Below, one piece after another: positions 2,377 through 55,410 of a stretch of 64,000 bases of DNA. Position numbers and translations under genes: made by a program. Positions within the stretch are counted from its first letter, which is position 1, and each line of letters begins with the position of its first letter. Source of the stretch: a bacterium (lineage in GTDB: Bacteria; SAR324; JACQKK01); NCBI GenBank assembly GCA_965205845.1, contig CBDBIG010000003.1, forward strand, positions 313,117-377,116, read 5' to 3'. A model generated the notes under the pieces. It worked only from the letters and a program-made list of their open reading frames with translations. It was not told the DNA's origin and did no database searches.

Positions 2377-2476
2377 CGATCTTTTTTGCCAGTGGCAAAG
2401 CATGGAGACGGGGACACCCGTTTGCGCTGCCGATCTTTTTTGCCAGTGGCAAAGCATGGAGACGGGGACACCCGTT
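2377..2476. repeat. 54-bp direct tandem repeat x2 (CGATCTTTTTTGCCAGTGGCAAAGCATGGAGACGGGGACACCCGTT) between trpB and the HDAC gene
   Basis: Exact 46-bp cores at 2377-2422 and 2431-2476. The ORF track shows the duplicated peptide (DLFCQWQSMETGTPV x2) in the spurious N-extension of ORF 2288. Confidence 0.9.
2386..2452. promoter_or_regulatory. Two copies of the perfect palindrome TTGCCA-G-TGGCAA (2386-2398 and 2440-2452) spaced 54 bp apart; candidate operator pair for a dimeric regulator
   Basis: The 6-1-6 inverted repeat was read directly. A centre-to-centre spacing of 54 bp is about 5 helical turns. It lies about 200 bp upstream of the HDAC-family gene start. Confidence 0.3.
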
Positions 2477-2644
2477 ATTTCCATGTGGTCGCATAAGCAT
2501 GGGGACGGGGACAACGGGCATGCACTTAAGTTTTGGGTGATTTTTGCCATAAATTTGCTTTTTGGGCTTCGAATGTGGTGTAAGGAAGGCTGGCGTTTTA
2601 GAGAATCATCGGGCGGCGGGTGCTGGTTACATCACAAGGGGGCA

Positions 2645-3679
2645 ATGCTAAGAAAAATGATGCGCGTTTTTTATCATCCAAGCGAGCAGCACTACCGCCC
2701 ATCGCGCACCTGGTTTCATGGACGCATCGAGCCCAATCCCGAGGTTGTTGCGCGCACCCAAAGCATTTTAAATGCACTGGAACAACACCCCAATTTTGCG
2801 TTTGAAGAACCCCCTAACCTTGATCCCACAAAAGACCTGCCTTTACTGGCAGAGGTGCACGATGAAGGCTACCTAAACACCTTAAAAACGGTGTGCGAGA
2901 GGCTGGACCCAGAGGAAGAGTTCTTTCCTTTTATGGCACGCCCCGACAAGGCCTTGTTGAAGGTGGCCTACCCCCGTGTGCGCATGGGCTATTATGCGGT
3001 CGATGGTTCCATGCCCTTATTAACCCGCTCTTTTACCACAGCCTTAGGAGCAGCCGCCAGCGCTTTGGCGGGTGCCAAGGCAGTGTTATCGGGTGAAAAA
3101 GCCGTATACAGTTTGTGCCGTCCCCCGGGGCATCATGCCAGCAGGGCATCGTACAGTGGGTATTGTCTGCTAAACAATGCCGCGTTGGCCGCGCAGCGTT
3201 TGTCTAAGCAGGGCAAAACCGCCATCCTCGACGTTGATTTTCATCATGGTAACGGAGTACAGGAAATTTTTTACGCACGTGAGGATGTGCTGTACGCCTC
3301 CTTACATGGTGATCCACGCCAAGCTTACCCTTTTATTTTGGGCGATAAAACCGAAACGGGAAACGGGGCAGGCTTGGGTTGCAACCATAATTTTCCCCTA
3401 CCCAAAGGCTGCAATTGGTCTTTGTATGCTCCCGCCTTAGAGGATGCCCTTGAGCGAATTGCCGCGTTTTCTCCCGACTTTCTAGTGGTAGGCCTTGGCT
3501 TTGATACCTATGCCAAAGATCCCATTGGTTTTTTTAAACTTGAGGTGTTGGATTTCGCTGCCATTGGAGCAAGGCTGGCGCAACTCCAATGCCCCACCTT
3601 GGTGGTCCAAGAGGGGGGCTATTGTGCACCTGAATTGGGGGATTTGGCGGTGGCTTTTTTTAGGGGCTTCGGGCATTAA
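2645..3679 (+). CDS. Histone deacetylase / acetoin utilization AcuC-family amidohydrolase (arginase-deacetylase fold)
   Basis: Contains DVDFHHGNGVQEIFY (the HDAC D-x-D-x-HHG-x-G motif) and GFDTYAKDP. The ORF-track start at 2288 runs through the tandem repeat, so the start was placed at the internal ATG at 2645 (MLRKMMRVFYHP). Confidence 0.8.
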   Translation: MLRKMMRVFYHPSEQHYRPSRTWFHGRIEPNPEVVARTQSILNALEQHPNFAFEEPPNLDPTKDLPLLAEVHDEGYLNTLKTVCERLDPEEEFFPFMARPDKALLKVAYPRVRMGYYAVDGSMPLLTRSFTTALGAAASALAGAKAVLSGEKAVYSLCRPPGHHASRASYSGYCLLNNAALAAQRLSKQGKTAILDVDFHHGNGVQEIFYAREDVLYASLHGDPRQAYPFILGDKTETGNGAGLGCNHNFPLPKGCNWSLYAPALEDALERIAAFSPDFLVVGLGFDTYAKDPIGFFKLEVLDFAAIGARLAQLQCPTLVVQEGGYCAPELGDLAVAFFRGFGH

Positions 3680-3752
3680 GGGGTTTGGATTTGGGGGGAT
3701 TTAGCGATGGCTTTTTTTAGGGGCTTCGGGCAAGGGGTTTGGATTTGGGGGG
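3643..3752. repeat. ~55-bp tandem duplication (x2) spanning the 3' end and stop codon of the HDAC gene
   Basis: GGCGGTGGCTTTTTTTAGGGGCTTCGGGCATTAAGGGGTTTGGATTTGGGGGG is followed by GCGATGGCTTTTTTTAGGGGCTTCGGGCAAGGGGTTTGGATTTGGGGGGGG. The first copy encodes the C-terminus AVAFFRGFGH and the stop codon. Confidence 0.85.
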
Positions 3753-4182
3753 GGTGGAGGCTTATTTTGGCTGCCCTTGGCACCCAACCTGATGCACTTT
3801 GCGTTCTTGATGGCTGGTTTTGCGCTCTTGGCAATGGGGGGGCCGCCATAGGCTTGGTTTTTTTTTTAGATGCCCCGCACGCACATAGAAGGCGGGCTTG
3901 CATCCCCAAGTTTTGATAGAACTTTTGCTGGCGGGTCCCCAGCACAAAGTGCCATGCTTTTATAAGCCTCATCTTGCGTGCTAATCGGCCTTTTAGTAGG
4001 GGTCTACGCCCGTTCTGTGCCAATTCTGCGCCAATTGCTATAAGCCAATGCCTTGTGCCAACTCCAACCCCACGTTACACGCAAAACAACCTGGGGCTGC
4101 CATACCTTTGCCCTCGCACTTTGGTTTTGTGGGCATTTGCTGGCAATTATGGGCTTTGCTAAAGTGCGACGTTGTGTTAGAA

Positions 4183-6302: not shown

Positions 6303-6375
6303 AAAACGCTAAAGGCTTAAGCATGGCCTTGATAACCAAAAAACCTTTAAAACCACAACACGCATTCTTTTTGTT

Positions 6376-8525: not shown

Positions 8526-8664
8526 TCAATTTCTCCTCATCACCCCGTTAACGGATTCTTCTCAAAGGCCATCAATTACGAAATCGATTACGCCAAAATC
8601 TTTGGTCCATTATTAAATATCTTACCTGTGGTAAGGGCCTCACAAACACCATTCATCTCCTTGC

Positions 8665-8831
8665 ACCACCATGCCCCATTTGCCAATAAGTATCTTGCTT
8701 TCAACGGCTTTTACGCACGCACCACCATGCCCCATTTGCCAATAAGTATCTTGCTTTCAACGGCTTTTACGCACGCACCACCATGCCCCATTTGCCAATA
8801 AGTATCTTGCTTTCAACGGCTTTTACGCATG
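8665..8831. repeat. 55/56-bp tandem repeat x3 in the intergenic region between the two paralogous OMP genes, 140-300 bp upstream of OMP-A
   Basis: CACCACCATGCCCCATTTGCCAATAAGTATCTTGCTTTCAACGGCTTTTACGCACG occurs at 8665, 8720 and 8776. Confidence 0.9.
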
Positions 8832-8866
8832 CACTCGCAGAACACACCCGCACCCTTAAAAGGTGT

Positions 8867-10123
8867 CTACAAGGAGACGGCAAGAACCAGACGTGCGGCA
8901 GACCACTCAATCAGCGGTTCCTTCAACCCAGCCAGAGAGTATGGCGTGATTGATTTGATGGTATACTCAAAGCCATAGGAAACGTTGTTTCGCTTTCTTA
9001 GCAGACCAATATTCGTAAAAGAAACCTCTTCTTGTTTAATGCTCGTACCGGTGTTGGTCTCTTCATTGACCTGTTGAAAATAAACCTCCGTATTAGGAAA
9101 ACGAAATTTTAGCGCTATGGCAAGGTCTGTTTTTTCCGGGATAATGGTGTCGCGGTCAAGGCTTGTGCTCCCTGCAACGAGTGCCGCTGACGCCGAGTTG
9201 GCACCTATGCTAATCACCCGCGAAAGCTTTGTTTGGGTTGACTCCACCCCTATGTAAAAACCACCAAAATTAACGGCAAACTCCCCCACATTACCAGAAG
9301 CCTCGGTTTCAACATCGTTATCATCCGCCGCGGAAACCCCACCTACCCGCGAACCCCGCGCAAAAGCAAAAACATCGCGATACCCTATTTTCCAACGCCT
9401 ACCTACATAGCTAAAATAGGATAGAATGCTTTGTTGGCTGCCAACAGCAAATGTTCGCCCACGGGCAGTACGGTCGCAGCGAAGTGAACACCCACTGCTC
9501 ACACTCATGCCAACGATCAAGCCAATGGGCAGTTGAAAGCGCAGGTCAATCGCCCCTAAATCACGAGGTGTCAACTGGTTTACGCCATCGCTGCGCACCG
9601 GCGCATAGCCTGGTTGAATGTCAGCAAAACCCGTACCTTCAATGCCTGGCAAGCGACCTATGTCCACAAGTAAAAAATCGGTGGCGCGCCAACGTACCCG
9701 CACCTGCGCGGTTTGCACCCCACCCGTTTGAAACACATCGTTTCTCAATACGTCATTTCTGCCACCCTCGGTGAGGGCAACATCCTGCTCGCCATTGCGG
9801 TTGCCCACCCCATATTGTGCACCGCGCACACGAAAGCGAAAATAATACGCGAAATCGCGTCCGCCCGTAAGTGCCACGCTTGATTGGACGGCGGTAAAGT
9901 AAGAATTCTCGCTTACAGGGCCCTTCGAGCCCACAGGCACTGCCTTAAGCGAGATGTCTCCAAAAGAGGCATCAACATCTCCGCTAAACTTGGGATATTT
10001 GTTTAAATCCTGGATCACTCCTGATGATGCAAGCGCGCTGGCGGCTTGCCCCCAAGCGTTGCTGCCCCATGCAAAGCATAAAACGAGCAAGGTGGTATTC
10101 AATAAGAAGCGTATCATACTCAA
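8867..10123 (-). CDS. Predicted outer-membrane beta-barrel (porin-like) protein, paralog B
   Basis: Signal peptide MSMIRFLLNTTLLVLCFAWGSNAWGQ, and the same IGRLPGIEGTGFADIQP / GAIDLRF / SSGCSLRC motifs as paralog A. Confidence 0.65.
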   Translation of the reverse strand: MSMIRFLLNTTLLVLCFAWGSNAWGQAASALASSGVIQDLNKYPKFSGDVDASFGDISLKAVPVGSKGPVSENSYFTAVQSSVALTGGRDFAYYFRFRVRGAQYGVGNRNGEQDVALTEGGRNDVLRNDVFQTGGVQTAQVRVRWRATDFLLVDIGRLPGIEGTGFADIQPGYAPVRSDGVNQLTPRDLGAIDLRFQLPIGLIVGMSVSSGCSLRCDRTARGRTFAVGSQQSILSYFSYVGRRWKIGYRDVFAFARGSRVGGVSAADDNDVETEASGNVGEFAVNFGGFYIGVESTQTKLSRVISIGANSASAALVAGSTSLDRDTIIPEKTDLAIALKFRFPNTEVYFQQVNEETNTGTSIKQEEVSFTNIGLLRKRNNVSYGFEYTIKSITPYSLAGLKEPLIEWSAARLVLAVSL

Positions 10124-11443: not shown

Positions 11444-12160
11444 TTAGCGGGTGCCGTCTATTTCGAGGGGTTTAATTAGGGTGTCATCCAAGCGTTGTGC
11501 GTGGTGCTCGTCTTGCGGGGCTGCATCATCCTCCCCAACTTCCTCGTTGTCATCCAAGCGTTGTGCGTGGTGCTCGTCTTGCGGGGCTGCATCATCCTCC
11601 CCAACTTCCTCGTGACTAAAGAGCCCATCTTGGGGCAGTTCTGGGATATCTAAAGCCTCAAGGGTGGGGAGTTCTTTTAAGGTGCTAATGCCAAACAGGC
11701 TAAAAAATTTACCTGCCACCCCGTATAGCAAAGGGCGTCCGGGGCCTTCATCGCGCCCTGTGATGCGTACCAGGCGTTTTTCTAACAAGCCACGCAAACC
11801 GTTTGAAGAATCGACTCCACGTAAATGCTCTACTTCTGCGCGGCTGACGGGCTGACGGTAGGCAATGATGGATAAAATTTCCAACGCCGCAGGGGAAAGT
11901 TTGGTGGGTTTGTAACGGCTCAGCTGGCTTAGCCATGGTTTAAACATGGGCAGTGTGCGCATTTGGTAGGCTTCGCCCACTTTGGCAATATGAAACGCGT
12001 GCTCGGCCGTGCTGTATTGTTGGTTTAGGGTTTTAACCATGGAAGCAATACGTAAAGTACCATGCGGTTTAAGCAGGCGGTTTAATGCATGGCTCGAAAC
12101 AGGGTCGGCGCTGGAAAACAAAACCGCCTCCAAGACCCTCTTTGCATCGTTGTCTTCCAT
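11444..12160 (-). CDS. scpB: Segregation and condensation protein B
   Basis: N-terminal LEAVLFSSADPVS, winged-helix region SRAEVEHLRGVDSSNGLRGLLEKRLVRITGRDEGPGRPLLYGV, and an acidic C-terminal tail. Confidence 0.8.
   Translation of the reverse strand: MEDNDAKRVLEAVLFSSADPVSSHALNRLLKPHGTLRIASMVKTLNQQYSTAEHAFHIAKVGEAYQMRTLPMFKPWLSQLSRYKPTKLSPAALEILSIIAYRQPVSRAEVEHLRGVDSSNGLRGLLEKRLVRITGRDEGPGRPLLYGVAGKFFSLFGISTLKELPTLEALDIPELPQDGLFSHEEVGEDDAAPQDEHHAQRLDDNEEVGEDDAAPQDEHHAQRLDDTLIKPLEIDGTR
11483..11614. repeat. In-frame 66-bp tandem duplication inside the scpB 3' coding region (22-aa acidic repeat EEVGEDDAAPQDEHHAQRLDD x2)
   Basis: Identical 66-bp units at 11483-11548 and 11549-11614. 66 = 22 codons, so the reading frame is preserved. 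Confidence 0.9.
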
Positions 12161-16016: not shown

Positions 16017-16128
16017 GTGTGCTGTGATGCCCATAGGTGGCAAGGCAAGCAAAAGTGCCCCTTTGTGCGGGTGTGTGCTGTGATGCCCATAGGTGGCAGG
16101 GCAAGCAAAAGTGCCTCTTGCCCATGGA
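16017..16128. repeat. 56-bp tandem repeat x2 (GTGTGCTGTGATGCCCATAGGTGGCARGGCAAGCAAAAGTGCC...) upstream of leuB
   Basis: Near-identical units start at 16017 and 16073. Confidence 0.85.
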
Positions 16129-21078: not shown

Positions 21079-21329
21079 TGTCACCAAACCCTCTCGGTGA
21101 AAGGAAACGAAAAGTCCCCCAAGCACCCAAAAAACCGCCGCAGCCTTCCTTGTGGAGCAAAGGCGTGCGATTTATGGCGGTGGGTGTTGAGGTAGCCGTT
21201 GCGATTTTGCTAAGCTTATGGGTGGGTCAGTGGCTTGACATCCGCCTTGGTAGCGAGCCTTGGCTATTGTTGGGATGCATGTTGGTTGGGATGATTGCCG
21301 CGCTCCGTATTTTAATGCGTTTGCGCTAG
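21075..21329 (+). CDS. atpZ: Small 2-TM membrane protein in the atpZ/AtpI-like position at the head of the F0 ATP synthase operon
   Basis: 84 aa. It has a basic N-terminus and two hydrophobic helices (VGVEVAVAILLSLWVGQWL / LLLGCMLVGMIAALRIL). It is immediately upstream of atpI-atpB-atpE. Its 3' end is the first unit of the 87-bp array. Confidence 0.6.
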   Translation: MMSPNPLGERKRKVPQAPKKPPQPSLWSKGVRFMAVGVEVAVAILLSLWVGQWLDIRLGSEPWLLLGCMLVGMIAALRILMRLR

Positions 21330-21790
21330 GCCTGCGGTTTGCACACAGCGCAGCTATTGGGATGCGTGTTGGTTGGGATGATTGCCGCGCTCCGTATTTT
21401 AATGCGTTTGCGCTAGGCCTGCGGTTTGCACACAGCGCAGCTATTGGGATGCGTGTTGGTTGGGATGATTGCCGTGCCCCGTATTTTAATGCGTTTGCGC
21501 TAGGCCTGCGGTTTGCACACAGCGCAGCTATTGGGATGCGTGTTGGTTAGGATGGTGGCCGCGCTCCGTATTTTAATGCGTTTGCGCTAGGCCTGCGGTT
21601 TGCACACAGCGCAGCTATTGGGATGCGTGTTGGTTAGGATGGTGGCCGCGCTCCGTATTTTAATGCGTTTGCGCTAGGCCTGCGGTTTGCACACAGCGCA
21701 GCTATTGGGATGCGTGTTGGTTGGGATGGTGGCCGCGCTCCGTATTTTAATGCGTTTGCGCTAGGCCTGCGGTTTGCACACAGCGCAGCT
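21265..21790. repeat. 87-bp tandem repeat x6 that begins inside the atpZ 3' end; every unit re-creates the atpZ C-terminal codons (…GMIAALRILMRLR) and the TAG stop
   Basis: Units start at 21281, 21368, 21455, 21542, 21629 and 21716 with exact 87-bp period (87 = 29 codons). Units differ by a few SNPs (GGTTGGGATGATTGCC vs GGTTAGGATGGTGGCC). The ORF track shows the repeated peptide AIGMRVGWDDCRAPYFNAFALGLRFAHSA in another frame. Confidence 0.95.
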
Positions 21791-23404: not shown

Positions 23405-23674
23405 CCTACTGATTGCTTGGCCTTAAAGCGATGAGGGGCACATTAGGGCAAAACAACACGCTCTTTGGTTTTTCTTTAAAAGGCGGCTAAAGGGCACGTT
23501 TGGGTGGGTACGTGTCGCCAAGCGATTTGGCGGATTGCTTGTTCCTTTCGCCCCTTGCCCCCGTTTACCGGGGGTTGCTTGGCTCGTACTTTTTGATGAG
23601 GCTATTTATCAGCATATGTGCAAGCTTTTGGCTGTGATACAAGGCCTTATGTAACCAACCACTTCCGCCCAAGA

Positions 23675-23860
23675 GCGATCTCATTCAATCCCGTCGCGTT
23701 GTGTTCGCCCGTAGCCGATCAAAAACCCTTGTGAAAGCGATCTCATTCAATCCCGTCGCGTTGTGTTCGCCCGTAGCCGATCAAAAACCCTTGTGAAAGC
23801 GATCTCATTCAATCCCATCGCGTTGTGTTCGCCCGTAGCCGATCAAAAACCCTTGTGAAT
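23675..23860. repeat. 62-bp tandem repeat x3 (GCGATCTCATTCAATCCCGTCGCGTTGTGTTCGCCCGTAGCCGATCAAAAACCCTTGTGAAA)
   Basis: Units at 23675, 23737 and 23799 in the gene-free region downstream of atpE. Confidence 0.9.
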
Positions 23861-24214
23861 CCGTTTTCTGGCACCTGCGCCTAAACCCCTTTTAGCAATT
23901 GCGTGTAAACCCTTGGGGTATGCCTTAAAAAAGCCGTGGGGGTATTCATGGGGCGTTTGCCCCTTTGCCGACCACCCCTTACCCGTGTGTCCTGAGAAGG
24001 GCACGGGAAAGAGCGGTCCATTTGGCGGTCAAAACCGCCTTTTACGCGCAAGATGAAACGGGTTTTTCATCGGCCATTTTGGGTTTTGGTTTAAAGGTTT
24101 TGGTTTAAGCCAACGCTTAAAACTCAGGTAACCGCCCAGCCCAGCCAAGAAGTGCATGTGTCCGAGCCTTGCTGGCGTGAAAAACATACCTCTCGCGCCT
24201 TGGCAGGGTTGCTC

Positions 24215-24252
24215 GCCCTTGCGTATCACTTAAAGCGGGCAAGGGCTTTTTT
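24215..24252 (+). terminator. Rho-independent terminator candidate
   Basis: GCCCTTGCGTATCACTTAAAGCGGGCAAGGGC (8-bp GC-rich stem) followed by TTTTTT. Confidence 0.6.
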
Positions 24253-24473
24253 GGGGTTATTCTCTATTGCCTTGGTGCTGTGGGTTGGCTTTTCTTGGAG
24301 TGCTTCCTCTTGGGTAGGAGGCCTCGGCAGCACTCTCGAGCCTTGAAGCCCTTTTGCAAAAGCACCTTGCATTCTCTGGGGGCAGGCTTTACCCACAAAA
24401 CCTAAAACCGCGTTATGAATCGCTACGCTATTGCGGGCAAAAGCCCTTTTTTGAGCATGGCTTGCCCTTTGGT

Positions 24474-24593
24474 CGATTTCAAACACAGGTTCAAACACAG
24501 GTTCAAACACAGGTTCAAACACAGGTTCAAACACAGGTTCAAACACAGGTTCAAACACAGGTTCAAACACAGGTTCAAACACAGTGCCATCAA
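24474..24593. repeat. 12-bp microsatellite (CAGGTTCAAACA) x10
   Basis: Read directly. It yields the FEPV/QTQV/FKHR peptide repeats seen in three ORF-track frames. Confidence 0.95.
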
Positions 24594-24644
24594 TCGCAAT
24601 GCTCGCCTTGACCTTAAAACCCCAAACCCATTCCTTCTTGGACG

Positions 24645-25124
24645 CCAGCCACCTGTTCCGCAGAGCAGATTCGAAGCCACGAGCGTTTACAAATGCTGTC
24701 AACAGCCGTAAAAAAAGAGTACTTGCGTTACATGAGGCGCAATCACCGACGTGGTAGCCCTCCCATGCGCGCATCATGAAAGAAATGTGCTACACTGAGG
24801 TGTCCTACGAACAGGCTTGGTTGGCTCTGCAGCCAGTTAAGTCGTTCATCCAAGTTTTGGCCCTTTTTTTAAGTATCACATGTACCAGCCACCTGTTCCG
24901 CAGAGCAGGTTCGAAGCCACGAGCGTTTACAAATGCTGTCAACAGCCGTAAAAAAAGAGTACTTGCGTTACATGAGGCGCAATCACCGACGTGGTGGCCC
25001 TCCCATGCGCGCATAATGAAAGAAATGTGCTACACTGAGGTGTCCTACGAACAGGCTTGGTTGGCTCTGCAGCCAGTTAAGTCGTTCATCCAAGTTTTGG
25101 CCCTTTTTTAAGTATCACACGTAT
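24645..25124. repeat. 240-bp direct tandem duplication (x2), near-identical
   Basis: Unit 1 is 24645-24884 and unit 2 is 24885-25124 (CCAGCCACCTGTTCCGCAGAGCAG...GGCCCTTTTTTTAAGTATCACA). Each unit carries a sigma70-like TTTACA-N17-TAAAAA and a T-run. Confidence 0.95.
24686..24714 (+). promoter_or_regulatory. Candidate sigma70-type promoter (TTTACA - 17 bp - TAAAAA), repeated at 24926-24954 in the second 240-bp unit
   Basis: -35/-10-like hexamers with 17-bp spacer read directly. A T7 run at 24864-24870 lies about 150 nt downstream, a possible short transcript. Speculative. Confidence 0.3.
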
Positions 25125-25135
25125 CTGTGTAAACG

Positions 25136-26509: not shown

Positions 26510-26528
26510 CCCTTTTGCCAAAGGTTTT
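26510..26528 (+). terminator. Weak terminator-like hairpin after ffh
   Basis: CCCTTTTGCCAAAGG followed by TTTTGAT. Short stem, low confidence. Confidence 0.3.
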
Positions 26529-26919
26529 GATAAAAGTTTTTAAGGTTGCTAGCATTTTGTGTATGATGGTACGTCTTTAGGTCAAAATCCTATGCCGATG
26601 GATGCCGTCAGGCGGCCTTCGGTCGTCCTCTTATGCTTTGCAAAACGCTGCTTAAAAAATGGCAGCCTTGGGACCGTGTATATCGGTGATGGCTTGGTGT
26701 CTCAAGCAAGCGGATAGACATCCATGGCAAAAAAGGACGCGGGCGAGAATTTATTGCCCCAGTGCAATCCAGAGGTAAGCCCTTCTAGCAAGCATCCCCG
26801 TGAGGTCCGCAAAAGTTCATCTAAGCCGGCAAAACCAGCCAAAAGCCTATGCAAAGCATGTTTTGGACAGCAAGCCTTTTGATTACAATTTAACACTAAG
26901 GAGTTATTGAGAAAATACT

Positions 26920-27300: not shown

Positions 27301-27466
27301 AGAAATTTTCACATCTGCCAGCCCCGGCAATATGGGGGTGCTTTGCGTAAAAGGCATCCATGGTTGGCCTTGTCTACGTGGGGTGACTTTGCGTAAAGAG
27401 GCCCTGTGGTTGGGCTTTACTGCTCTATGGCAGTGCTCAACGCGCTGGGGCTGACTTGCCACAAGC

Positions 27467-32426: not shown

Positions 32427-32831
32427 GGGCATTTGCAAAAGTGGTTGCTTTTAAGCAATCTTGCAAGCCTCATTCAAGCATTGTTATAGACGCGGCACGG
32501 GCAAAAAATAAGGGCATTTGCAAAAGCAGTTGCTTTTAAGCAATCTTGCAAACCTCATTCAAGCATTGTTATAGACGCGGCACGGGCAAAAAATAAGGGC
32601 ATTTGCAAAAGCAGTTGCTTTTAAGCAATCTTGCAAGCCTCATTCAAGCATTGTTATAGACGCGGCACGGGCAAAAAATAAGGGCATTTGCAAAAGCAGT
32701 TGCTTTTAAGCAATCTTGCAAGCCTCATTCAAGCATTGTTATAGACGCGGCACGGGCAAAAAATAAGGGCATTTGCAAAAGCAGTTGCTTTTAAGCAATC
32801 TTGCAAACCTCATTCAAGCATTGAATAGAAA
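32407..32831. repeat. 85-bp tandem repeat x5 that starts inside the SPFH gene 3' end (includes the TAA stop) and fills the whole intergenic space up to the next start codon
   Basis: GCGGCACGGGCAAAAAATAAGGGC marker at 32407, 32492, 32577, 32662 and 32747 with exact 85-bp period. The first unit encodes …LRGTGKK-stop. Confidence 0.95.
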
Positions 32832-33502: not shown

Positions 33503-34270
33503 TTGCACGCCCAGGTAAAGTCTATGCAAAAATTTGCCCGCGATGTACCTGCCAACGTGGGTGTTACCATTCCCCAAATGTCCAGCGCAAGCAATCTTTG
33601 TGCATGTGCTGACCAAAGTATTGACTTGGCTGTCACATCCCCGCCCTATTTAAACGCCGTTGACTATCCCCGAACCCATCAGCTTGAAACTTACTGGTTA
33701 GGCCTCGCTTCTGGTTCTTTGAGGGATTTAAAAGCGCAGCACATCGGTACTGAAGTTGTTTCTTCACGGGATTGCAAACGCTTACACGCGACGGGTTACG
33801 ATTGCGCGGATGCTGTTATTGCAAGCATCTATCAAAAAGACCCGCGCAGAGCCTACCATTGCCTACAAGTACTTGGTAGATATGGAAGAGCTATTTAAAA
33901 GAAGTAAATCGGGTGTTAAAACCACAGGGAAGGTATGTGATTGCGATTGGCTCTAACAAGGTTAGGGGGCATACCTTTGAATCTTGGAGACATTTTATCG
34001 ACATCGCACAAAGCGTTGGTTACAGGGTAAACCATCGGTTCGAGTCGGAGATTATTAACCACTTTATCAAAGTACCTCGCGATGAGCGCATTGAGGAAGA
34101 TCATGTGTTGGTATTGTAAAAAGGAAAGAAAATAAAGGCCAACGTGCCGCTGCCACTGGGTTTGCAAACGAAAGCAGGCTTCTTGGGGCCTTATTATCAA
34201 GGGGTTACAATGCTTTTAGGGTAGACCTACCTCTATCTTCTTATGATATTATCATGGAATTGGATCCACG
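33503..34270 (+). pseudogene. Beta-class (N4-cytosine/N6-adenine) DNA methyltransferase, disrupted by at least two frameshifts
   Basis: Frame 1 gives CADQSIDLAVTSPPYLNAVDY (motif IV, the D/S-PPY type). Frame 2 gives YKYLVDMEELFKRSK. Frame 3 gives RVLKPQGRYVIAIG. A further frame reads AAATGFANESRLLGALLSRGYNAFRVDL, resembling the FxGSGTT...GR.FIGIE SAM-binding region. The order IV->I matches the beta class. No intact ORF spans these pieces. Confidence 0.6.
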
Positions 34271-35709: not shown

Positions 35710-36594
35710 ATGGTGACACCCCCCCCTTGCCTTACCAACGCAGATACACCCCAAAAAACGCGTCAACTGCTGGGTGAGCGGCTGCAAACGTTTGTACCCA
35801 GGCCCCCACCCTATCCGCTGATTATGGGCATTATCAACGTCACCCCAAACTCGTTTAGCGATGGTGGCGACCTACCCCAGCTCGAGGATGTGCTCCGTCG
35901 GGCAGGCACCTTAAAGGGCGAAGGGGCAGATATTTTAGATGTAGGTGGGGCGTCCTCACATCCCAATGCCCCCCATACCCCAATTAAAGTGGAATTACAG
36001 CGCGTTGTGCCCGTGGTGAAAACCCTACACCAGCAAGGATTGGGACCTATTTCAATCGATACCCAACACCCTGCTGTCGCGCAGCAATGCCTGCACGCAG
36101 GGGCGCACCTAATCAACGATGTAAGCGGCCTTTGCACCACCCAAACCCCCAACGCTGATATGGCCGCGATCGCTGCTCAATTTGGAGCGCCGCTGGTGAT
36201 CACCTGCAACCATTTGAACCAACCCCCTCCCCCCAACACGCCTTTGTTAGAAGGGATGCTCCATTTTTTTAAGCAGCGCATTACCGCCGCCAAAAAGCAC
36301 GGGGCGACCCAACTTATTTTGGATCCTGGGTATGGTTTTGGCAAAAGCCTGCCCCAAAACTTGCAAACTTTGCGCGAACTTTCAAGTTTAATCCCTTTGG
36401 GTTACCCTATTTTAACCTGCACTTCGCGCAAAGGTTCCCTTGGCAAGTTAAGCGCAGAACCCAAACCAAAGGAACGCCTAGGTGCCGGTTTGGCAAGTGC
36501 ATTCTTTGCGCTGAAACAAGGGGCTAGCATTGTGCGTACCCATGATGTAAAACCCTTGCACCAGTTCGTTCATCTATGGCACACTTTGCGGTGA
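35710..36594 (+). CDS. folP: Dihydropteroate synthase
   Basis: IMGIINVTPNSFSDGGD (the DHPS N-terminal motif), DILDVGG, and GASIVRTHDV (C-terminal motif). The start is uncertain (ORF-track ATG at 35653; a later ATG at 35710 was used). Confidence 0.85.
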   Translation: MVTPPPCLTNADTPQKTRQLLGERLQTFVPRPPPYPLIMGIINVTPNSFSDGGDLPQLEDVLRRAGTLKGEGADILDVGGASSHPNAPHTPIKVELQRVVPVVKTLHQQGLGPISIDTQHPAVAQQCLHAGAHLINDVSGLCTTQTPNADMAAIAAQFGAPLVITCNHLNQPPPPNTPLLEGMLHFFKQRITAAKKHGATQLILDPGYGFGKSLPQNLQTLRELSSLIPLGYPILTCTSRKGSLGKLSAEPKPKERLGAGLASAFFALKQGASIVRTHDVKPLHQFVHLWHTLR

Positions 36595-37240
36595 CCCGCG
36601 CACAACATAGGCTAGGCAACACCTTATATAAATTTTTTTGTTTTTATGGCGTAAAAAAATTAAAGCATCGTTATTGCGCTTTTTGTATGTGATGTTTTGC
36701 GCAAGGCTTGGGCGTTGGCGGCTTGGCCACTGTACGCGCGTTTTCTCACATCATTTCAAAATACAGTCAATTAAGAAGCACGCAAGCCTGCTTGCCGCCG
36801 ATATTTCCTTGCGCAAAACACGCCTTTTTACGGCAGCCGAAAAGCGTGAGGTAAAACGCTTGCAACAAGCAAAGGCGCGCGTTGTGCGGACCCATGATGC
36901 TAAAACCCTTGCACCAGTTCGTTCATCTATGGAACCCCTTACGATGACCCACGCACAATTTGGCTATGAGCAGGACCTTAAATGAACTTTTTTTGGTTTT
37001 TATGGCGTAAAGAAATCAAAGCCTCGTTATTGCGCTTTTTGTTTGTGATGTTTTGCGCAGGCTTGGGCGTTGGCGGTTTAGCCACTGTACGCGCGTTTTC
37101 TCACACCATTCAAAATACGGTCAATCAAGAAGCACGCAGCCTGCTTGCCGCCGATATTTCCTTGCGCAAAACGCGCCCTTTTACGGCAGCCGAAAAGCGT
37201 GAGGTAAAACGCTTGCAACAAGCAGGGGCGCGCGTTGTGC
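36530..37240. repeat. ~355-bp tandem duplication spanning the folP 3' end, the intergenic spacer and the first ~85 codons of the downstream FtsX-permease gene
   Basis: Unit 1 is about 36530-36885 and unit 2 about 36886-37240. GTGCG[GT]ACCCATGATG...CACCAGTTCGTTCATCTATGG..., TTTTTATGGCGTAAA[AG]AAATCAAAG...CGCTTTTTGT[AT]TGTGATGTTTTGCGCA...GCCACTGTACGCGCGTTTTCTCACA...CGCTTGCAACAAGCA. About 93% identity. The junction lies at the short homology TTGTGC. Confidence 0.9.
36638..36985 (+). pseudogene. Chimeric ORF created by the 355-bp duplication: N-terminal 80 aa of the FtsX-permease fused to a diverged copy of the FolP C-terminus
   Basis: MFLWRKKIKASLLRFLYVMFCARLG...LLAADISLRKTRLFTAAEKREVKRLQQAKARVVRTHDAKTLAPV. 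Compare the real gene MNFFWFLWRKEIKASLLRFLFVMFCAGLG...LLAADISLRKTRPFTAAEKREVKRLQQAGARVVQ and the FolP end VRTHDVKPLHQFVHLWHTLR. Confidence 0.6.
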
Positions 37241-43497: not shown

Positions 43498-46400
43498 TTT
43501 AAAAAAATGCCTTCTTGGGTATTTTCTGAGTCACCAAGATGGCTTTTTTTGGGTGTGCCCAGGGGGCCTTCTTTGGCTTTTATGCGGCAAAAAGCCGTAA
43601 AATCGCAATACTCGCAGGCGTCGTCTTGAGGATCGACCTGCGCTGCCCCTCGAGAAAATTGTTTCACGCTTTTTTCAAATGCCTGTTGCCAACGTGCCAA
43701 CAGTGCTGGCTGTGTAGGCCATGGGTTTTTACCCCAGGTGCTTACTTTGTTGCCAAACAAACTGTCTTTGAATGTGACCTCACTCAAGCCAATCATCTCC
43801 ATGCCTTTGCGGTGCAGTTTGGCAAAAGCAAGTGCCATCAGGGGTTTTTGCTGCTGCGCTGGCTGTTGTGCTTGTTTTTGGAGCCAGGCCAAGGCATAAA
43901 GGGGCAGTTGGGGTTGGGTAATGCGTTCCTCGTTCTGCCATGAATGAAGGGGCAGTGTTTCTCCCGTTTTATAGTCCAGCAACACGGCAGCCTCAACCGC
44001 TTCTTGTGCATTCGATTCAAGGCTGCATTCTACGTAGTCCAAGCGGTCGAGACGTAGGCTTAAGGGCAAGCCAACCACGCTAAAGTCCAGTTTTTCCTCT
44101 TGCTTGCCTACACAAAAATCGCCCCTTTCCATGGCTTCTTTTTCCAACCATGCTGTGAGCAAACGGGTGATACGTTTGCCTTCCAAGCGTGCGGCGGCGG
44201 GAGAAAGCATCACGGTTTTTTTGCTTGCCTGTGCTTCGCTCGGTTTAGCTTGTGCTGCGGGGTCTGCGGGGTCTGCGGGGTCTGCGGGGTCTGCGGGGTC
44301 TGCGGGGTCTGCGGGGTCTGCGGGGTCTGCGGGGTCTGCGGGGTTGCTTACGCGAATAACACGCCCAATGGTGCGTTCCAAGGCTTGCTTAAAAGCCAAA
44401 GGTTTGGCAAGGAGGGCTCGTAATTCGCTTTGGCTTTGGGCCGCATCGTGCCAAAAAATTTCCAACACCCAGTGCACAATATTGCCTCGGGTCAGTGCGT
44501 CCAAACCTGTTTGCGCAAGGGTTTTTTTTTGGAGCATCAGGCGGTGCCTTGCAAAACTGCGAAAAGGGCAGAGCGCAATATCTTGGAGCAAACTTGCACC
44601 ACCCTTTAGGGTAGACACATCAATGGGCGGCCCGTTGGAATCGGGGCATGACTGCCAAGGCGAATGGCTTTGGGCATGGTCCAACATGGCCATCCATGCC
44701 GTGTGGGGGGGTGTCGGCATGGCACCTTTGGTGACGATAGGAGGGGGGGTGATGGTTTGCAGCAAGGAGCTGGGTCTGCGCTCCTCTTCGCTATCTAACT
44801 GCTGGGTTGCGTGGCTAATAACCACCTGCTTGGCGCTATGCAACAAGCGCGTCAGGCTCATTTTTCCCAGTGCAAGTTCACGGGCAGCACTTGAGCGTGG
44901 CATCTGATGGTCGCGTTGAAAAGCAAGGGGTAGCAAAGCATGCGGCATGGGCGGGGGAGGCCAGTGTTGATCATCAAAGCCCAACACCCATAGGTGGTCA
45001 AAAAAGAGACCGCTAGCCTGCCATGGTCCTAAAATATGGAGGCTTGCTTCGAATCCCTCGGCTTGAAAGGGGGTTTCTGCAACGATCCGTTGTAACCATG
45101 CAAACGCTTGGTTTGCAGACCATAGGTTCGTCGTTTGTGTATTTTGGATTCCATCGAGGGTGGAAAATACCTGCAACGCCTTTAAAAATCTCTTTTTTGC
45201 CTGTGCCTCGGTACTGTTAAGACCGCCCTCGGTTTGGCTCCCGTTTTTGGAAAAACCCAAGGTCCAACCCGCTGTGTGCAACAGGTTTAAAAAAAAATGC
45301 GCCCATTGCGAGGGCATTTTGTGCGTTGTTTGGGCCAATTGCCACGCATTTTTCCAAGCTTGCATTGGTTGGCACCATGTCTGCAGTTCTACCCCCGAAC
45401 GTTGCGCTTGTTGCAGCACATGGCGCACTGAAAACGGCTCAACCCAGGTGGCCAAAAAACGATGCGCAAACCGTGCACGCGGAATGCGTTCGGCGGTGGC
45501 ACCCACAATAAATGGGCTTGTAACCCACTGCACAAAATGCTTGGCACTGCGTGCAACCAAAGGGGATTGCAACAAGAGCAAGGCCGCTTGGACCAACCCT
45601 TGCTCGCTGAGTGGTGGTGCATAGGAAAGGTTAAAGGGCTTGGCTGCACCTGCCTCGGTTGCATGGGTAATCAGGGTTTTGATGGGGGATAAATACTGTG
45701 TACAGACCGTGTGCACCCGTTGCCATTCTTCTTGCAGATTGGGGTGGATAATCGCAATTTTTTGCTTTGGGTTTTTTTGGGATAAGTCACGTGCCCAAAG
45801 CAGTGCTCCCTCTAATTCCTTTTGCGAGTTTGAATACGGATGCACGGTAGGAGGGTTTGCCAACGGCGGTGGTGCTTGCCTTTGGGGTTGTGGCTCGGCT
45901 TGGGCGCGGGGTAGGGCAAGCCAAGTGCTAGCTGGCACGTTCACGGGGACCCACTCCACCACCACTTGTAGAGTACGCAATGCATCAAACAACCGCTCTT
46001 GCTGCGGGGTCAAGACATCAAACCCGCAGAGCACCATGTTGGTGGGCAACATAAACCCAAAGCCTTGGGTACTACCTTGTTCTCCAAGGTAATGTTCCCT
46101 TTCCAAAGCATGCACCACCAAACTGGCTACCTGTTCTTGACTACACCACCCTTGGGTATGCATTGCTTGCCCAAAAGCCAATGCCCAATTGACAAAAACC
46201 TTGGCTTCCAATTGCAACGTATGGGCAAAGGCTTCCTTTGCATGGGGCTGTAAAAACGCTCCTATGGTGGTATTCCAGCCCACAACATGCCACTCGCATA
46301 GCAAACCCCATGCTTGCTGTGCCAAGGCAGCGGCTTTGGCTGGTGTTAAGGGCTTATGAGTCGTCGTTGGGTTATGCAGGGGTGTTGTGCGGGAATTACG

Positions 46401-46691: not shown

Positions 46692-46846
46692 CTGTTTTGT
46701 TCCATTGTTTTAAAAAGAGCTGCTCTTTTTTGCACACGTATCCCCATCTTTAAAATCTCACAAACGAAGTACAAGTGCCATGAGAACGATGGCTTGTTAT
46801 CGGCATAACCCTTGTGGCTATCGCAATTTAAATCGGTCTGATAGGG

Positions 46847-47062
46847 CACAAAGCCAAACGCACCTTGATTCTCGCGCTCAAGGATTTTCTTTTCTGCATG
46901 CCAGCGTCCAAGTTTTATCCCATTTTTCCCTGCGCTGCTTCCTTGTGCACAAAGCCAAACGCACCTTGATTCTCGCGCTCAGGGATTTTCTTTTCTGCAT
47001 GCCAGCGTCCAAATTTTGTCCCATTTTTCCCTGCTTCGGGTTCCTTGTGCACAAAGCCAAAC
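46847..47062. repeat. 101-bp tandem duplication (x2, bounded by a 13-bp direct repeat CACAAAGCCAAAC) covering the thyX 3' end, stop codon and downstream
   Basis: Units at 46861-46960 and 46961-47062 have a few SNPs and one small indel. This makes the ThyX C-terminus FGFVHKEPEAGK...GAFGFVHKEAAQGKMG-stop with FGFVHKE twice. 101 is not a multiple of 3, so the copies are read in different frames. Confidence 0.9.
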
Positions 47063-48591
47063 AAGGGTGCAAATAAAGGATGCGCTTTCAGTACGCATTG
47101 ATACATCTGCTGGGCAATCCCTCTGTATACCAAATGGCCTTGGGGCATCGTGCGTAACTCGGTTAACCAAATCAGTGCCCTTAAATTGAGATGCACCTGC
47201 CAGCGTACACGATAAGCCATGGGGAGCACGTAGGCGGCTTGCTCGGCAGAAAAATGCTGGCTCAGTTGCTGGTGCGCCTCGGCGGCTTGCAAAATCGCTT
47301 GGCAAAAAGGTTTTTCTAAGTTTGCCGCTTGAATATCTTCTGGGATCGTATAACCAAGGCTGATTCCAAGGGGTTGCCGTTGCTGGGTTAGGGTGCGATG
47401 GCGGTGCAGGTCGCGAAACGCACCAAAATCCGCCTGCAATTCGAAGGTGTAAAACACCAGTTCGGTGGCTCGGGGGGGCTTGTGGCGGCGGTTTTTGCGC
47501 GCTTTGCCCAGGCTTTCGATGGCTCTTTGGCGGGCGGCGGCGTCTAAGTCTGCCACGCTACGCTGTACGCCATCCCAGGGGCAAGACTGGTCCTCGTACA
47601 ACCACGCCGTAAGCATTTTTTCAACCGCTTGTCCCTCGCTTTCACAGTGCAACAGGCGTACGCATTCTCCACCGTTTTCCGCAATCCCCTCAAAGGCTTG
47701 GGCGACCGAAGCAGGGGGAAATACCTGTGCGAGGGTTTTTTGACGCGCTTTAAGCAGGGTTTGATGGTAGGTTTGTTGCGCTTTGGTGTTGGGGTGCTCC
47801 CTGGCGGAGCGCGTAACGAAAGCGGGAATCACGCCTTCCAGTTCGCATTGCATGGCATTGGCAAGGGCTTGCATTTCAGGCAAAGACTGGCTGCGTGTTT
47901 TGGCAATAAGGCTTTGAAAAAAACGCCCGTTACCATAAAGCCCCATGTTGGTGTGGGTGCAAATGGGAAGCAACCCCCGCAAAACATCCAAGGCGTGTGC
48001 GTGCAATGCTCTTTCCCATGGAATTTTCTTTTGTCCTTGGGGTCGCGGGCTGGCTTGCCTTAAAAATTGCTGTAAAGGGCCAAGCAAATCTCGATAACTG
48101 TCAAACAAAGTGCGCACGGCTTTTAAAAACAACCCTTGCTGGGGTGACGCCATAATTTGAGGGTCTTGATAAAAACGATAGTCACCATTGAAGAGGTCAT
48201 CAAAGCGCACATAACGCGTCGATTTTTCGAGGAATGAGCCCCCAATGCGCGAAGCCTGCAAATGGTTGGCAGCAAGCATCGAAATGCCCTCCAAGGCCAA
48301 GTGTGCACCGCCCAATTCTCCCACCGAATCATCGCCATAGCCATCGAGCACACGTTTGTAAAATGCATGCGCTTTTTTCTCATCGGCTTCCAAAAGGGTC
48401 TCCTCGCCCGCCAAAAATTCGCGCTCCAAGAGGCTGCGCAAATCGAGATTTGAACGCGAATAACGCGAAAACAATGCACCCTTCACCACCTCTGGCAAGG
48501 CTTTTAACGCAAAGATAGGCCTTTGTGTATTGGTTACAAAGCGTGCTACGGTGGTGGGATTAAAGGGCGTTAAAGGGGAATGCTTGTTCAT
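46915..48591 (-). CDS. thyX: FAD-dependent thymidylate synthase ThyX, long tandem-domain form (558 aa)
   Basis: C-half: ELVFYTFELQADFGAFRDLHRHRTLTQQRQ (the ThyX RHR motif) and RVRWQVHLNLRALIWLTELR (ThyX C-terminal N-x-R-x-L helix). N-half: SRIGGSFLEKSTRYVRF (S-x3-S-x-RY half of the ThyX signature) and ALDVLRGLLPICTHTNMGLYGNGRFFQSLIAKTRSQ. Two ThyX-like domains are fused. Confidence 0.65.
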   Translation of the reverse strand: MNKHSPLTPFNPTTVARFVTNTQRPIFALKALPEVVKGALFSRYSRSNLDLRSLLEREFLAGEETLLEADEKKAHAFYKRVLDGYGDDSVGELGGAHLALEGISMLAANHLQASRIGGSFLEKSTRYVRFDDLFNGDYRFYQDPQIMASPQQGLFLKAVRTLFDSYRDLLGPLQQFLRQASPRPQGQKKIPWERALHAHALDVLRGLLPICTHTNMGLYGNGRFFQSLIAKTRSQSLPEMQALANAMQCELEGVIPAFVTRSAREHPNTKAQQTYHQTLLKARQKTLAQVFPPASVAQAFEGIAENGGECVRLLHCESEGQAVEKMLTAWLYEDQSCPWDGVQRSVADLDAAARQRAIESLGKARKNRRHKPPRATELVFYTFELQADFGAFRDLHRHRTLTQQRQPLGISLGYTIPEDIQAANLEKPFCQAILQAAEAHQQLSQHFSAEQAAYVLPMAYRVRWQVHLNLRALIWLTELRTMPQGHLVYRGIAQQMYQCVLKAHPLFAPLFGFVHKEPEAGKNGTKFGRWHAEKKIPERENQGAFGFVHKEAAQGKMG

Positions 48592-50050: not shown

Positions 50051-50068
50051 AAAACCCCTCCTCATGGC

Positions 50069-53622: not shown

Positions 53623-54140
53623 GACAAGGCACTTTTTAAAAAAAGAGACGATTGAACGTTAGCAGCATGGGTCAGGGCAATGGCGAGGGCATCGGATTCA
53701 TCGCCGCCCATGGTTTGGTGGTATTGTAGCAACATCTGCACCATACGTGCTACCTGTGCTTTCTCGGCGCGCCCGCTGCCCGTCATGGCTTGCTTAACAC
53801 TGCTAGGGCTATATTCAAAAAGTTGAATCCCGTGGCGGGCCAGGGTGAGCAGTGACGCCCCGCGTGCCTGCCCCAACGCAAGGGCACTCCTCGGGTTATG
53901 CGCACTAAATACTCCCTCAATCGCACCGTGCTTGGGTTGGTAGGTTTCTAGTACGGCTTCTAGCCCCTCGGCTAACCGGCATAAACGCGTGTGCAAAGGT
54001 GCTCTGCTCGACAATTTGAAGACGCCACTTCCCAACCGTACCTGCTGTTGTGCGCTTTGTTGTAAAATAACCCCCCAACCCAGCATGCGGCTCCCAGGGT
54101 CGACCCCCAAAATGGTTAAAGGAAAGTTTATCCGTTCCAT
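53619..54140 (-). CDS. ruvC: Crossover junction endodeoxyribonuclease RuvC
   Basis: ILGVDPGSRMLGWGVI (catalytic Asp), ...EGVF..., and the acidic residues of the RNase H fold. Overlaps ruvA by 4 bp. Confidence 0.9.
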   Translation of the reverse strand: MERINFPLTILGVDPGSRMLGWGVILQQSAQQQVRLGSGVFKLSSRAPLHTRLCRLAEGLEAVLETYQPKHGAIEGVFSAHNPRSALALGQARGASLLTLARHGIQLFEYSPSSVKQAMTGSGRAEKAQVARMVQMLLQYHQTMGGDESDALAIALTHAANVQSSLFLKSALS

Positions 54141-54880
54141 TCTTTAGCCAATCCTTCAGACAAATCAAAATTGGAAAACACTTTTTGCACATCGTCATCT
54201 TCTTCGAGAAAGTCCAAGAACTTCACCAGTTTTTCAGCTTGGACCCTGTCGGCAATTTCGACCTGCACGGTGGGTAACCATTCCAATTGTGCCGCTGTGA
54301 TCTTCATTTTTTTATCTTCGACACAGCTCCGCACAGCATCAAACTGCTCCATAGGGCAATACACCACAAAGTGCTCTTCTTGCTCTTCCAAATCATCTGC
54401 TCCGCCTTCGAGTACAGCATTGGTGATTTCTTCTTCTGCAATTCCCGCTTTGGGGACCATAAGGACCCCTTTGCGTTGAAACATATGCTGCACCGAATTA
54501 GAACTGCCTAAATTGCCATTGTGCTTGCTAAAAATAGAGCGTACCGAGGCCACCGTACGGTTGCGATTGTCCGTTAAAGCCTCCACCATAACGGCCACAC
54601 TAAATGGGCCATAGCCTTCATACACAATTTCCTCAAAATTGTTGCCTCCTAAACCACCCGCCCCCTTTTTGACGGCACGCTCAATGGTATCGCTTGGCAT
54701 GTTTTGCCCACGCGCTTGGGTTACTGCGAGGCGCAAGCGCGGGTTGGTGTCAATATCACCACCGCCTTGTTTGGCTGCTACCGTAATTTCACGAATTAAT
54801 TTTGTGAAAATTTTACCGCGTTTGGCGTCCACGGCAGCCTTTTTGTGTTTAATCGTACTCCACTTGCTATGTCCTGACAT
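54128..54880 (-). CDS. yebC: YebC/PmpR-family transcriptional regulatory protein
   Basis: MSGHSKWSTIKHKKAAVDAKRGKIFTKLIREI, a near-universal YebC N-terminus. Confidence 0.92.
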   Translation of the reverse strand: MSGHSKWSTIKHKKAAVDAKRGKIFTKLIREITVAAKQGGGDIDTNPRLRLAVTQARGQNMPSDTIERAVKKGAGGLGGNNFEEIVYEGYGPFSVAVMVEALTDNRNRTVASVRSIFSKHNGNLGSSNSVQHMFQRKGVLMVPKAGIAEEEITNAVLEGGADDLEEQEEHFVVYCPMEQFDAVRSCVEDKKMKITAAQLEWLPTVQVEIADRVQAEKLVKFLDFLEEDDDVQKVFSNFDLSEGLAKEWNG

Positions 54881-55298
54881 CGTTTACCTTCATTTTTCCC
54901 TCCCTTATTTTAGTGCGCGTACTTGCAGCATGCGAGCACGATAATAGGGATGCCTCCCTGATCCCATGGCGCACATCGTACTTTATTTTTCGCGAATTAG
55001 CACGACCATTTTTTATCACTCGCCCGTAGCTATCTCGGGTGCGTTGTGGAAACCATCTCGAGCAGAGCGCAATGAAATCTTTCCCTCCTTCGATTCATTT
55101 GAATGCCAACGGGTTGATACCCGATACGTCATCGGCTCATCCAAAGGCCACCCCCAAAACATCACAGAACGGCTTTACAGCCATTTTAAAACCCTACAAA
55201 AGCAGCCTCACAAAGGAGGCAAGCGATTGATGACAACATCAAAACGCAAAAAACAGGGCTATTGCAAAATTTGCGGTCAAGACGGGCAGTGTAAAAAC

Positions 55299-55410
55299 AG
55301 GTGCACATTTACACGGATGGGCGTTGGTGCCAAGCAAAACGAAGGCGGCAAAGCAGGTGCACATTTACACCGATTAGCGTTCGTGCCAAGCAAAGGGAAG
55401 CAGTTGTTCC
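55299..55410. repeat. 56-bp tandem duplication (x2, about 80% identical) of the epmA 3' end including its stop
   Basis: AGGTGCACATTTACAC[GC]GAT[GT][AG]GCGTT[GC]GTGCCAAGCAAA... appears at 55299 and 55355. Copy 2 encodes …LLPFAWHER-stop. Copy 1 is a diverged duplicate downstream. Confidence 0.8.

Follow-up and report, generated by a model that had tools for sequence, protein, structure and literature searches.

A dense set of young tandem duplications of local origin in a 51% GC bacterial genome

We analysed a 64-kb stretch of bacterial DNA (contig CBDBIG010000003.1, positions 313,117 to 377,116, GenBank assembly GCA_965205845.1; the whole stretch is hereafter the window) in which ordinary housekeeping genes are accompanied by a dense set of short tandem duplications. 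Profile scans give the following gene map: trpB, an HDAC-family gene, ccmB, trpD, trpC and three open reading frames (ORFs) without a family; scpB, fxsA, lipA, tRNA-Cys, tRNA-Leu, GST, a metallo-β-lactamase-fold gene, leuB, a NUDIX gene and hemL; atpZ-atpI-atpB-atpE, ffh, rpsP, rimM and trmD; a SIR2 gene, a hexapeptide transferase gene, nfeD, an SPFH gene, folP, a YbbP-like permease gene, addA and addB; a 558-aa thyX, a DUF3047 gene, mgtE, gatC, ssb, ruvA, ruvC, yebC, epmA and efp; and, in a flagellar cluster, a flgL-like flagellin-family gene, flgK, flgN, flgM, a flgJ-like gene and flgI. The recombination genes within the window are addA, addB, ruvA, ruvC and ssb. Coding density is ~76-78% when computed with maximal ORFs, which overestimates coding. 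The ORFs of the HDAC gene, ccmB, trpD, the SIR2 gene, trmD and atpE extend 60-150 codons upstream of the respective domain, and the epmA ORF (55374-56939, minus strand) carries an N-terminal extension of ~175 aa ahead of its GenX domain; true starts, and hence coding density, are therefore uncertain.

Tandem duplications are many times more frequent in the window than in unrelated bacterial loci used as controls. Tandem Repeats Finder (TRF) listed 21 rows, including 12 strong arrays with periods of 54-353 bp and, besides these, short-unit arrays (9-12 bp); the same array families were recovered by an independent seed-and-extend search. Two further 56-bp duplications, next to leuB and at the epmA stop, were missed by TRF and found by reading the sequence; both are real and older. 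Identical TRF settings applied to 83 unrelated bacterial loci totalling 1.25 Mb (period at least 20, score at least 150) returned 15 rows representing ~9 distinct arrays. The control rate is 0.5-0.8 per 64 kb; the 12 of the window bear out a sequence-only reading of this DNA that had counted at least 12 near-identical arrays where few would typically be expected. The ScpB, (PVFE)n, 240-bp, AddB and two 11-bp arrays (Table 1) were absent from that reading. Under the fixed TRF parameters of PMC3287509 (Table 4 of that paper), tandem repeats make up 6.33% of the window with 297 TRF rows per Mb, compared with 0.35% and 72 rows per Mb in the control loci. Values published for other genomes are 6.3% and 133 rows per Mb for Ehrlichia ruminantium, 1.6% and ~73 rows per Mb (93 rows in 1.27 Mb) for Wolbachia wMel, and 0.38% and ~19 rows per Mb (89 rows in 4.65 Mb) for E. 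coli; in 2012 the E. ruminantium content was called the highest so far reported for bacteria (PMC3287509).

The arrays are young. Adjacent copies are mostly at least 95% identical, over a range of 75-100% that is wider than the 93-100% implied by an earlier statement that copies differ by 0-7%. Self-BLAST of the window found no older, decayed arrays, with poor sensitivity below ~70% identity. By position, six arrays span a stop codon (HDAC, atpZ, SPFH, folP, thyX and epmA) and two a start codon (rimM and the permease), the folP stop and the permease start being spanned by one and the same 353-bp unit. A further array ends shortly ahead of the ffh start; five or six occupy intergenic DNA exclusively, and three are contained within ORFs. 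In the 87-bp array, ATT is common to copies 1-3 and GTG to copies 4-6, with copies 4 and 5 the same, and the nested variant patterns in the 87-bp and 85-bp arrays point to stepwise growth.

Table 1. Tandem arrays in the window, with unit length, copy number and identity between copies
Position	Unit and copies	Strand	Location and features
2368-2476	54 bp x2 (98%)		between trpB stop (2226) and HDAC domain, probably in the 5′ region of HDAC or in spacer upstream of it; followed by an older, partial third copy
3637-3754 (TRF 3637-3752)	57 bp x2.1 (87%, 3-bp indel)	+	spans HDAC stop codon 3677-3679; TAA lost from second copy via 3-bp deletion
8663-8834	56 bp x3.07 (98-100%)		intergenic, 32 nt downstream of stop of ORF 8867-10123 (-); GCAC microhomology at junction
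11482-11613	66 bp x2, exact	-	in-frame 22-aa duplication in ScpB acidic C-terminal tail, outside conserved domain
16017-16128	56 bp x2 (88%)		older; intergenic, metallo-β-lactamase-fold gene / leuB
21270-21790	87 bp x6 (94-100%)	+	starts 60 nt before atpZ stop 21327-21329; every unit repeats last 19 codons, TAG and 27-nt spacer
23674-23859	62 bp x3 (98-100%)		intergenic, downstream of atpE
24478-24584	12 bp x8.9, exact		(PVFE)n, ~9 repeats, in doubtful 183-aa ORF 24226-24777 (-)
24645-25123	240 bp x2 (97.5%)		ends 12 nt before ffh start codon 25136
27463-27654	96 bp x2, exact	+	rimM upstream region, start codon and first 11 codons; first copy gives 14-aa decoy ORF 27526-27570
30563-30987	85 bp x5 (95-98%)		fills spacer from hexapeptide-transferase stop 30510 to nfeD start 31015
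32405-32823	85 bp x4.9 (95-100%)	+	starts 22 nt before SPFH gene end, stop 32424-32426; TAA present in every unit
36530-37240	353 bp x2 (90%)	+	spans folP stop 36592-36594 and YbbP-like permease start 36982; chimeric 115-aa ORF 36638-36985
44255-44344	9 bp x10, exact	-	in-frame (PAD)10 insertion in AddB
46846-47062	101 bp x2.1 (92%)	-	thyX 3′ end; bounded by 13-nt direct homology
55299-55410	56 bp x2 (75%)	-	oldest array; spans epmA stop 55374-55376; stop mutated in outer copy
61078-61112	11 bp x3.3		intergenic, flagellar cluster
62955-63024	11 bp x6.4		intergenic, flagellar cluster

Arrays that cross gene termini leave recognizable products. Five 3′-end arrays had been described from the sequence as repeating the C-terminal codons together with the stop; the copied stop does survive in atpZ and SPFH but not in HDAC, epmA and thyX. 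The decoy ORF of the rimM duplication is as originally claimed, and so is the chimeric ORF at the folP-permease duplication, in which a copied permease N-terminus is joined to a copied folP C-terminus. In this array the start codon of the inner permease copy has mutated from ATG to ATA. The thyX array begins exactly at the end of the ThyX profile, and the thyX ORF (46915-48591, minus strand) is roughly double the length usual for this gene. It continues across one complete unit and terminates, frame-shifted, in the following one, so that its non-conserved 48-aa tail is a product of the duplication. All three intragenic arrays (66, 9 and 12 bp) have periods divisible by three, compared with 5 of the 13 other periods. 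We rejected an identification with phase-variation contingency loci, which have units of 1-9 bp in promoters or 5′ coding sequence: the main units here are 54-353 bp long and the 9-bp and 12-bp arrays are in frame, which makes frame-shifting impossible for both. An accumulation of arrays is found in the 1.7 kb after atpE (23405-25135), which contains no convincing gene and no atpF, carries four arrays (62 bp x3, 14 bp x2, 12 bp x9 and 240 bp x2) and may be a decayed region.

Each unit derives from sequence at its own locus. The units at atpZ, SPFH, folP, the permease, rimM and thyX are demonstrably copied from the coding sequence of the neighbouring gene itself, and the units show no cross-array or dispersed matches in the window beyond the 11-21 nt expected by chance. 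The exception is the 11-bp unit GCAAAAAGGGC, the only one present at more than one locus in the window, which occurs in the flgK/flgN and flgJ-like/flgI intervals; its A5 tracts, phased at one helical turn, suggest that the DNA there is intrinsically bent. Profile scans of ~60 ORFs revealed no transposase or integrase domain. Both statements of the sequence-only reading on this point, that the units do not look like miniature inverted-repeat transposable elements (MITEs) and that no transposase or integrase is present, stand, and the arrays are not mobile elements, the units being locus-specific and without dispersed copies in the window. Junctions between copies share 0-5 nt of microhomology, and 13 nt in the one case of thyX, in agreement with the proposal that short direct homologies of the kind left by slippage or illegitimate recombination bound the units. 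GTGC/GCAC, considered as a junction motif, was rejected (3/14 junctions against a background of 0.10, p = 0.18), and no junction motif survives 136 tests (best 4-mer, p = 0.006).

The dense arrays recur in a relative from another sample. The window proteins occur once in a large protein collection, all of them on one 877,621-bp NCBI/ENA contig, and the genome of the window is not among the GTDB species representatives, in which the best hemL match is 50-54% identical. The nearest Ffh sequences, 50% identical, come from metagenome-assembled genomes labelled SAR324/Lambdaproteobacteria and from others, with nothing between 51% and 99% identity in the Ffh search; an AddB protein search gave nothing above 27% identity, and JGI metagenomes, scanned for exact DNA matches to the 87-bp unit's core, gave 0. 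By cluster look-up we found EF-P in a 90% cluster with a protein on an 8.3-kb ENA contig (L087, from ERZ26693861). Its efp is 81% identical to that of the window at the nucleotide level, its GC content is 52.5%, and it shares only efp-epmA with the window, among different neighbouring genes. L087 carries two arrays: one, 104 bp x6 (97%), begins within a short-chain dehydrogenase gene, 54 nt ahead of its stop, and the other, 47 bp x4.7, finishes exactly on the stop codon of a second gene. Tandem repeats make up 10% of this contig, which like the window has a several-per-cent fraction, more than 10 times that of a typical bacterium as represented by the controls. L087 is a different, related species, and dense arrays are a trait of the lineage. 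Since most arrays are at least 95% identical internally and efp differs by 19%, the arrays post-date the split between the two species; the duplication process would thus have been running in both branches, as opposed to a single burst.

More distant relatives (L081, L084-86, L088 and L089; EF-P 68-72% or Ffh ~50% identical) do not share this state. Their GC content is 61-69%, except for L089 (4.9 kb) at 52.8%, compared with 51% in the window. A comparable intergenic array occurs once across L081 and L084-86 (~69 kb together) and not at all in L088 (20.5 kb); the sole array of L089 is 51 bp x2.4 at 81% and probably belongs to the tail of rpsP. In all of these relatives trmD-rimM-rpsP-ffh form a compact block, divergent from an adjoining efp-epmA, and this arrangement is ancestral; in the window the two blocks (25136-28973 and 55374-57499) lie 30 kb apart, and in L087 efp is flanked by split short-chain dehydrogenase ORFs, fliM and fliN. 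The splitting and reshuffling of the efp-epmA and ffh neighbourhoods means that rearrangements accompany the repeat-rich state, and because arrays, AT shift and broken synteny are found in the window and L087 unlike in the distant relatives, they are traits of that sublineage. Spacers average 245 bp in the window and 135 bp in the relatives (p = 0.10). The genome looks like an AT-shifted and possibly reduced one that has nevertheless kept flagellar and recombination genes. Relatives also carry a repetitive C-terminal extension in rpsP, the gene between ffh and rimM (L081, 11808-12181, periods 33/66/69 bp; L089, 738-857, period 51 bp); this coding repeat is unrelated to the intergenic arrays of the window. 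Separately, the window has two adjacent ORFs at 33503-34119 that look like a frameshifted remnant of a DNA methyltransferase; the one of 131 aa contains an SPPY motif, the other is 68 aa long, and neither has a Pfam match at E ≤ 0.01. L087 holds an intact N6_N4_Mtase-HNH gene.

Gene-end anchoring of the arrays is mainly a survivorship pattern. In a selection-filter null, a segment of each observed period was placed at every position of the window and wholly intragenic placements, 49-74% of positions, were discarded. Among 13 window arrays, 7 span any gene terminus where 5.3-5.5 are expected (p = 0.24-0.26); the null thus reproduces the overall count, which does not support anchoring at gene ends as the special property that the sequence-only reading took it to be. 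A modest excess remains at 3′ ends: the window has 6 where 3.0-3.2 would be expected (p = 0.05-0.07), adding L087 gives 7 against 3.5 (p = 0.037), and counting the stop-touching L087 array as well gives 8 (p = 0.010). At 5′ ends, 2 are observed against ~3.5 expected with L087 (3.0-3.2 for the window alone). A duplication that includes a stop or start codon leaves an intact gene in every case, the first copy serving the gene upstream and the last copy the gene downstream; disruption comes only from duplications wholly within a gene. The asymmetry of 3′ over 5′ could reflect selection against duplicated promoters, ribosome-binding sites and starts, or a real mutational bias at gene ends.

From these observations we consider it probable that the lineage is one of frequent short tandem duplication (~47-353 bp) and slow purging, in which duplications of slippage-type origin are filtered by selection. 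A first duplication would arise through RecA-independent slipped-strand mispairing or template switching, at essentially arbitrary sequence and with little or no microhomology. The unit would then itself supply homology, and the variant patterns suggest subsequent expansion and contraction by slippage or unequal sister-strand exchange. Selection finally removes wholly intragenic duplications unless they are in frame, as the statistics show, and spares those that span termini; survivors are therefore intergenic, in frame or on gene termini. The 3′ gene fragments, decoy start, chimeric ORF and altered C-terminal tails are side effects of this process and not designed function. The probable cause of the regime is drift together with a relaxed deletion bias, in a genome that is AT-shifted, rearranged and possibly host-restricted. 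It involves no new mechanism and is a further case of a known tandem-repeat regime.

Several observations weigh against this interpretation. The leftover 3′ excess is one, as a pure filter predicts none unless 5′-spanning duplications are also selected against. Another is that 5 of the 14 periods crowd into 54-57 bp; featureless slippage would predict no such crowding. Coding density (~76-78% with maximal ORFs, which overestimate it) is higher than the about 64% of E. ruminantium, the closest analogue discussed below. The lineage is sampled by the 64-kb window and 8 kb of L087, and repair genes were read within the window alone; the molecular mechanism, any ongoing change in copy number and the population-genetic cause are inferred.

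The 3′ excess would be explained directly if gene 3′ ends were mutational hot spots, at which forks or transcription complexes stall during termination or replication-transcription conflict and provoke template switching. The ratio of 3′-spanning to 5′-spanning arrays (7 to 2) and the excess of 7 over the 3.5 of the null, at p = 0.037 or p = 0.010 depending on the stop-touching L087 array, agree with such a hot spot, and the 3′ pattern of L087 matches that of the window. The units themselves speak against it. Twelve units folded as single strands gave z-scores of -1.7 to +1.3 relative to shuffles, with no excess structure; terminator-like sites in the window number 37 against 32.6 ± 5.9 expected, with none in the 3′-end-spanning units. 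The intergenic array at 30563 has one chance-level terminator-like match at its left edge (30573-30554, minus strand), and Rfam finds two tRNAs and nothing else in the window. On these fold scores and chance-level counts we rejected slippage driven by hairpins or terminators, and the link to transcription termination or 3′-end processing that had been suggested from the sequence is not supported. A hot spot at 3′ ends also leaves aside the five or six purely intergenic and three intragenic arrays, and units reach into genes to widely varying depths, with 18-75% of their length. Taken alone, the 7:2 asymmetry falls short of significance, and it would also follow if duplicated promoters and start codons were selected against. 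We therefore regard a 3′ hot spot as unlikely, although less so than the other alternatives.

Unit lengths raise the related possibility of a distinct duplication process that prefers gene ends and lengths of ~55 and ~85-100 bp and continually remodels 3′ untranslated regions (UTRs) and C-terminal tails. The five periods at 54-57 bp are joined by three at 85-87 bp, and the window has none of 15-53 bp. The chance of five periods falling inside a 4-bp window is p = 0.002-0.06 depending on the smooth null chosen, and the L087 periods of 47 (or 92) bp and 104 bp dilute the clustering further. The clusters at ~54-56 bp and ~85-87 bp noted earlier are thus visible in the data with weak support, and we leave this weakly supported clustering unexplained. 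Quantised unit lengths, as multiples of 28 bp or of the helical repeat, do not fit. If such a process existed, its length preference could stem from the footprint of the replisome, of SSB or of a nucleoid protein, or from replication-transcription encounters, and no denser minisatellite-like system would be known from bacteria; its mechanistic signature could be read in the sequence. We hold this to be about as unlikely as the 3′ hot spot, or marginally more so; the leftover 3′ bias and the length clustering leave small room for a more specific process.

Retention of the arrays because they are useful, by varying 3′ UTR length, C-terminal tails or promoter spacing in the manner of contingency loci, is a distinctly improbable account. 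Some arrays do alter proteins (the ThyX tail, the ScpB acidic tail and the AddB (PAD)10 insertion), and the ffh upstream region and the rimM start are each duplicated by an array. Against usefulness, the affected genes are housekeeping genes without a common theme, the altered tails lie outside conserved domains, the units have no motif in common, and redundant copies are decaying, as shown by the permease start and by the HDAC and epmA stops.

An artefact of assembly or amplification, in which stutter or mis-joined reads create false copies, is more improbable still. In its favour, the arrays at 11482 and 27463 are exact two-copy duplications. Most arrays, in contrast, contain structured differences between copies, every intragenic array is in frame, and older duplications have diverged to 75-90% identity. 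The independent assembly of L087, from another sample and species, has the same architecture, which identifies the arrays as a trait of the lineage and not an assembly artefact.

Mycobacterial interspersed repetitive units with variable-number tandem repeats (MIRU-VNTRs) consist of ~50-100 bp tandem units that sit at intergenic junctions, overlap neighbouring stop and start codons and belong to one dispersed sequence family. A dispersed family of this MIRU-like kind, or one resembling repetitive extragenic palindromes (REPs) or MITEs, inserting at gene boundaries and then amplifying, would fit the unit sizes (~50-100 bp) and boundary locations and the occurrence of GCAAAAAGGGC at two loci, but can be dismissed as extremely improbable: units of different arrays are dissimilar and have no copy elsewhere in the window, several are copies of the adjacent gene's own coding sequence, and no transposase was found among the ORFs scanned. 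MIRU-like families are excluded because the window units, of local sequence origin, are unrelated to one another.

Frequent duplication filtered by selection has its closest counterpart in E. ruminantium, which the sequence-only reading rightly chose as the comparable precedent. With identical TRF settings the two tandem-repeat fractions agree (6.3% and 6.33%), and in both the arrays are locus-specific, are found mainly outside coding sequence or at the ends of genes, and yield truncated gene fragments within rearranged neighbourhoods. Repeats of E. ruminantium are mostly non-coding and undergo expansion and contraction, and slipped-strand mispairing is the mechanism proposed for them (PMC10710844, PMC7343930, PMC3287509). 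The differences are also clear. The window lineage is deep-branching, does not belong to the Rickettsiales and has hemL and flagellar genes; GC content is ~28% in E. ruminantium compared with 51% in the window; the mean unit is 139 bp in 4.8 copies compared with 75 bp in 3.7 copies; copy identity is 91.6% compared with 97.5%; and there are 133 loci per Mb compared with 297. Copy-number variation between and within isolates defines the E. ruminantium system, whereas the window is known from one sequence.

E. ruminantium is not the only precedent, as had been supposed, since the VNTRs of Wolbachia (PMC3287509) and the repeats of Portiera aleyrodidarum BT (PMC3673631) are related cases. Wolbachia VNTR-105 and VNTR-141 are likewise intergenic, with periods of ~100-140 bp, near-identical copies and expansion and contraction attributed to slippage; the tandem-repeat fraction of Wolbachia is 4-6 fold lower (0.9-1.6%), and its VNTR units contain hairpins regarded as the trigger of slippage (PMC3287509), unlike in the window, where units lack excess structure. 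In Portiera BT, repeats proliferate in enlarged intergenic regions, together with rearrangements, and were put down to altered mutation and repair combined with tolerance in non-coding DNA (PMC3673631). Its repeats, however, are microsatellites with a spike at 7 bp in a 358-kb genome of 26% GC, where units here measure 47-353 bp, and it has lost dnaQ, mutL, ruvC and ssb (PMC3673631), whereas the window has ruvC, ruvA, ssb and addAB.

Should the rest of its genome resemble the window, this lineage would match or surpass E. ruminantium in tandem-repeat content. The same state in an unrelated genome of 51% GC means that the regime is not peculiar to AT-rich Rickettsiales. For annotation the arrays carry a warning, as many small ORFs and gene tails in the window are by-products of duplication, and for the organism itself they would serve as excellent VNTR markers. 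The lineage offers a second, independent system in which to study the origin of short tandem duplications and how selection shapes the sites at which they survive, as well as the ways in which they give rise to fragments of genes, to decoy starts and chimeric ORFs, and to new C-terminal tails.

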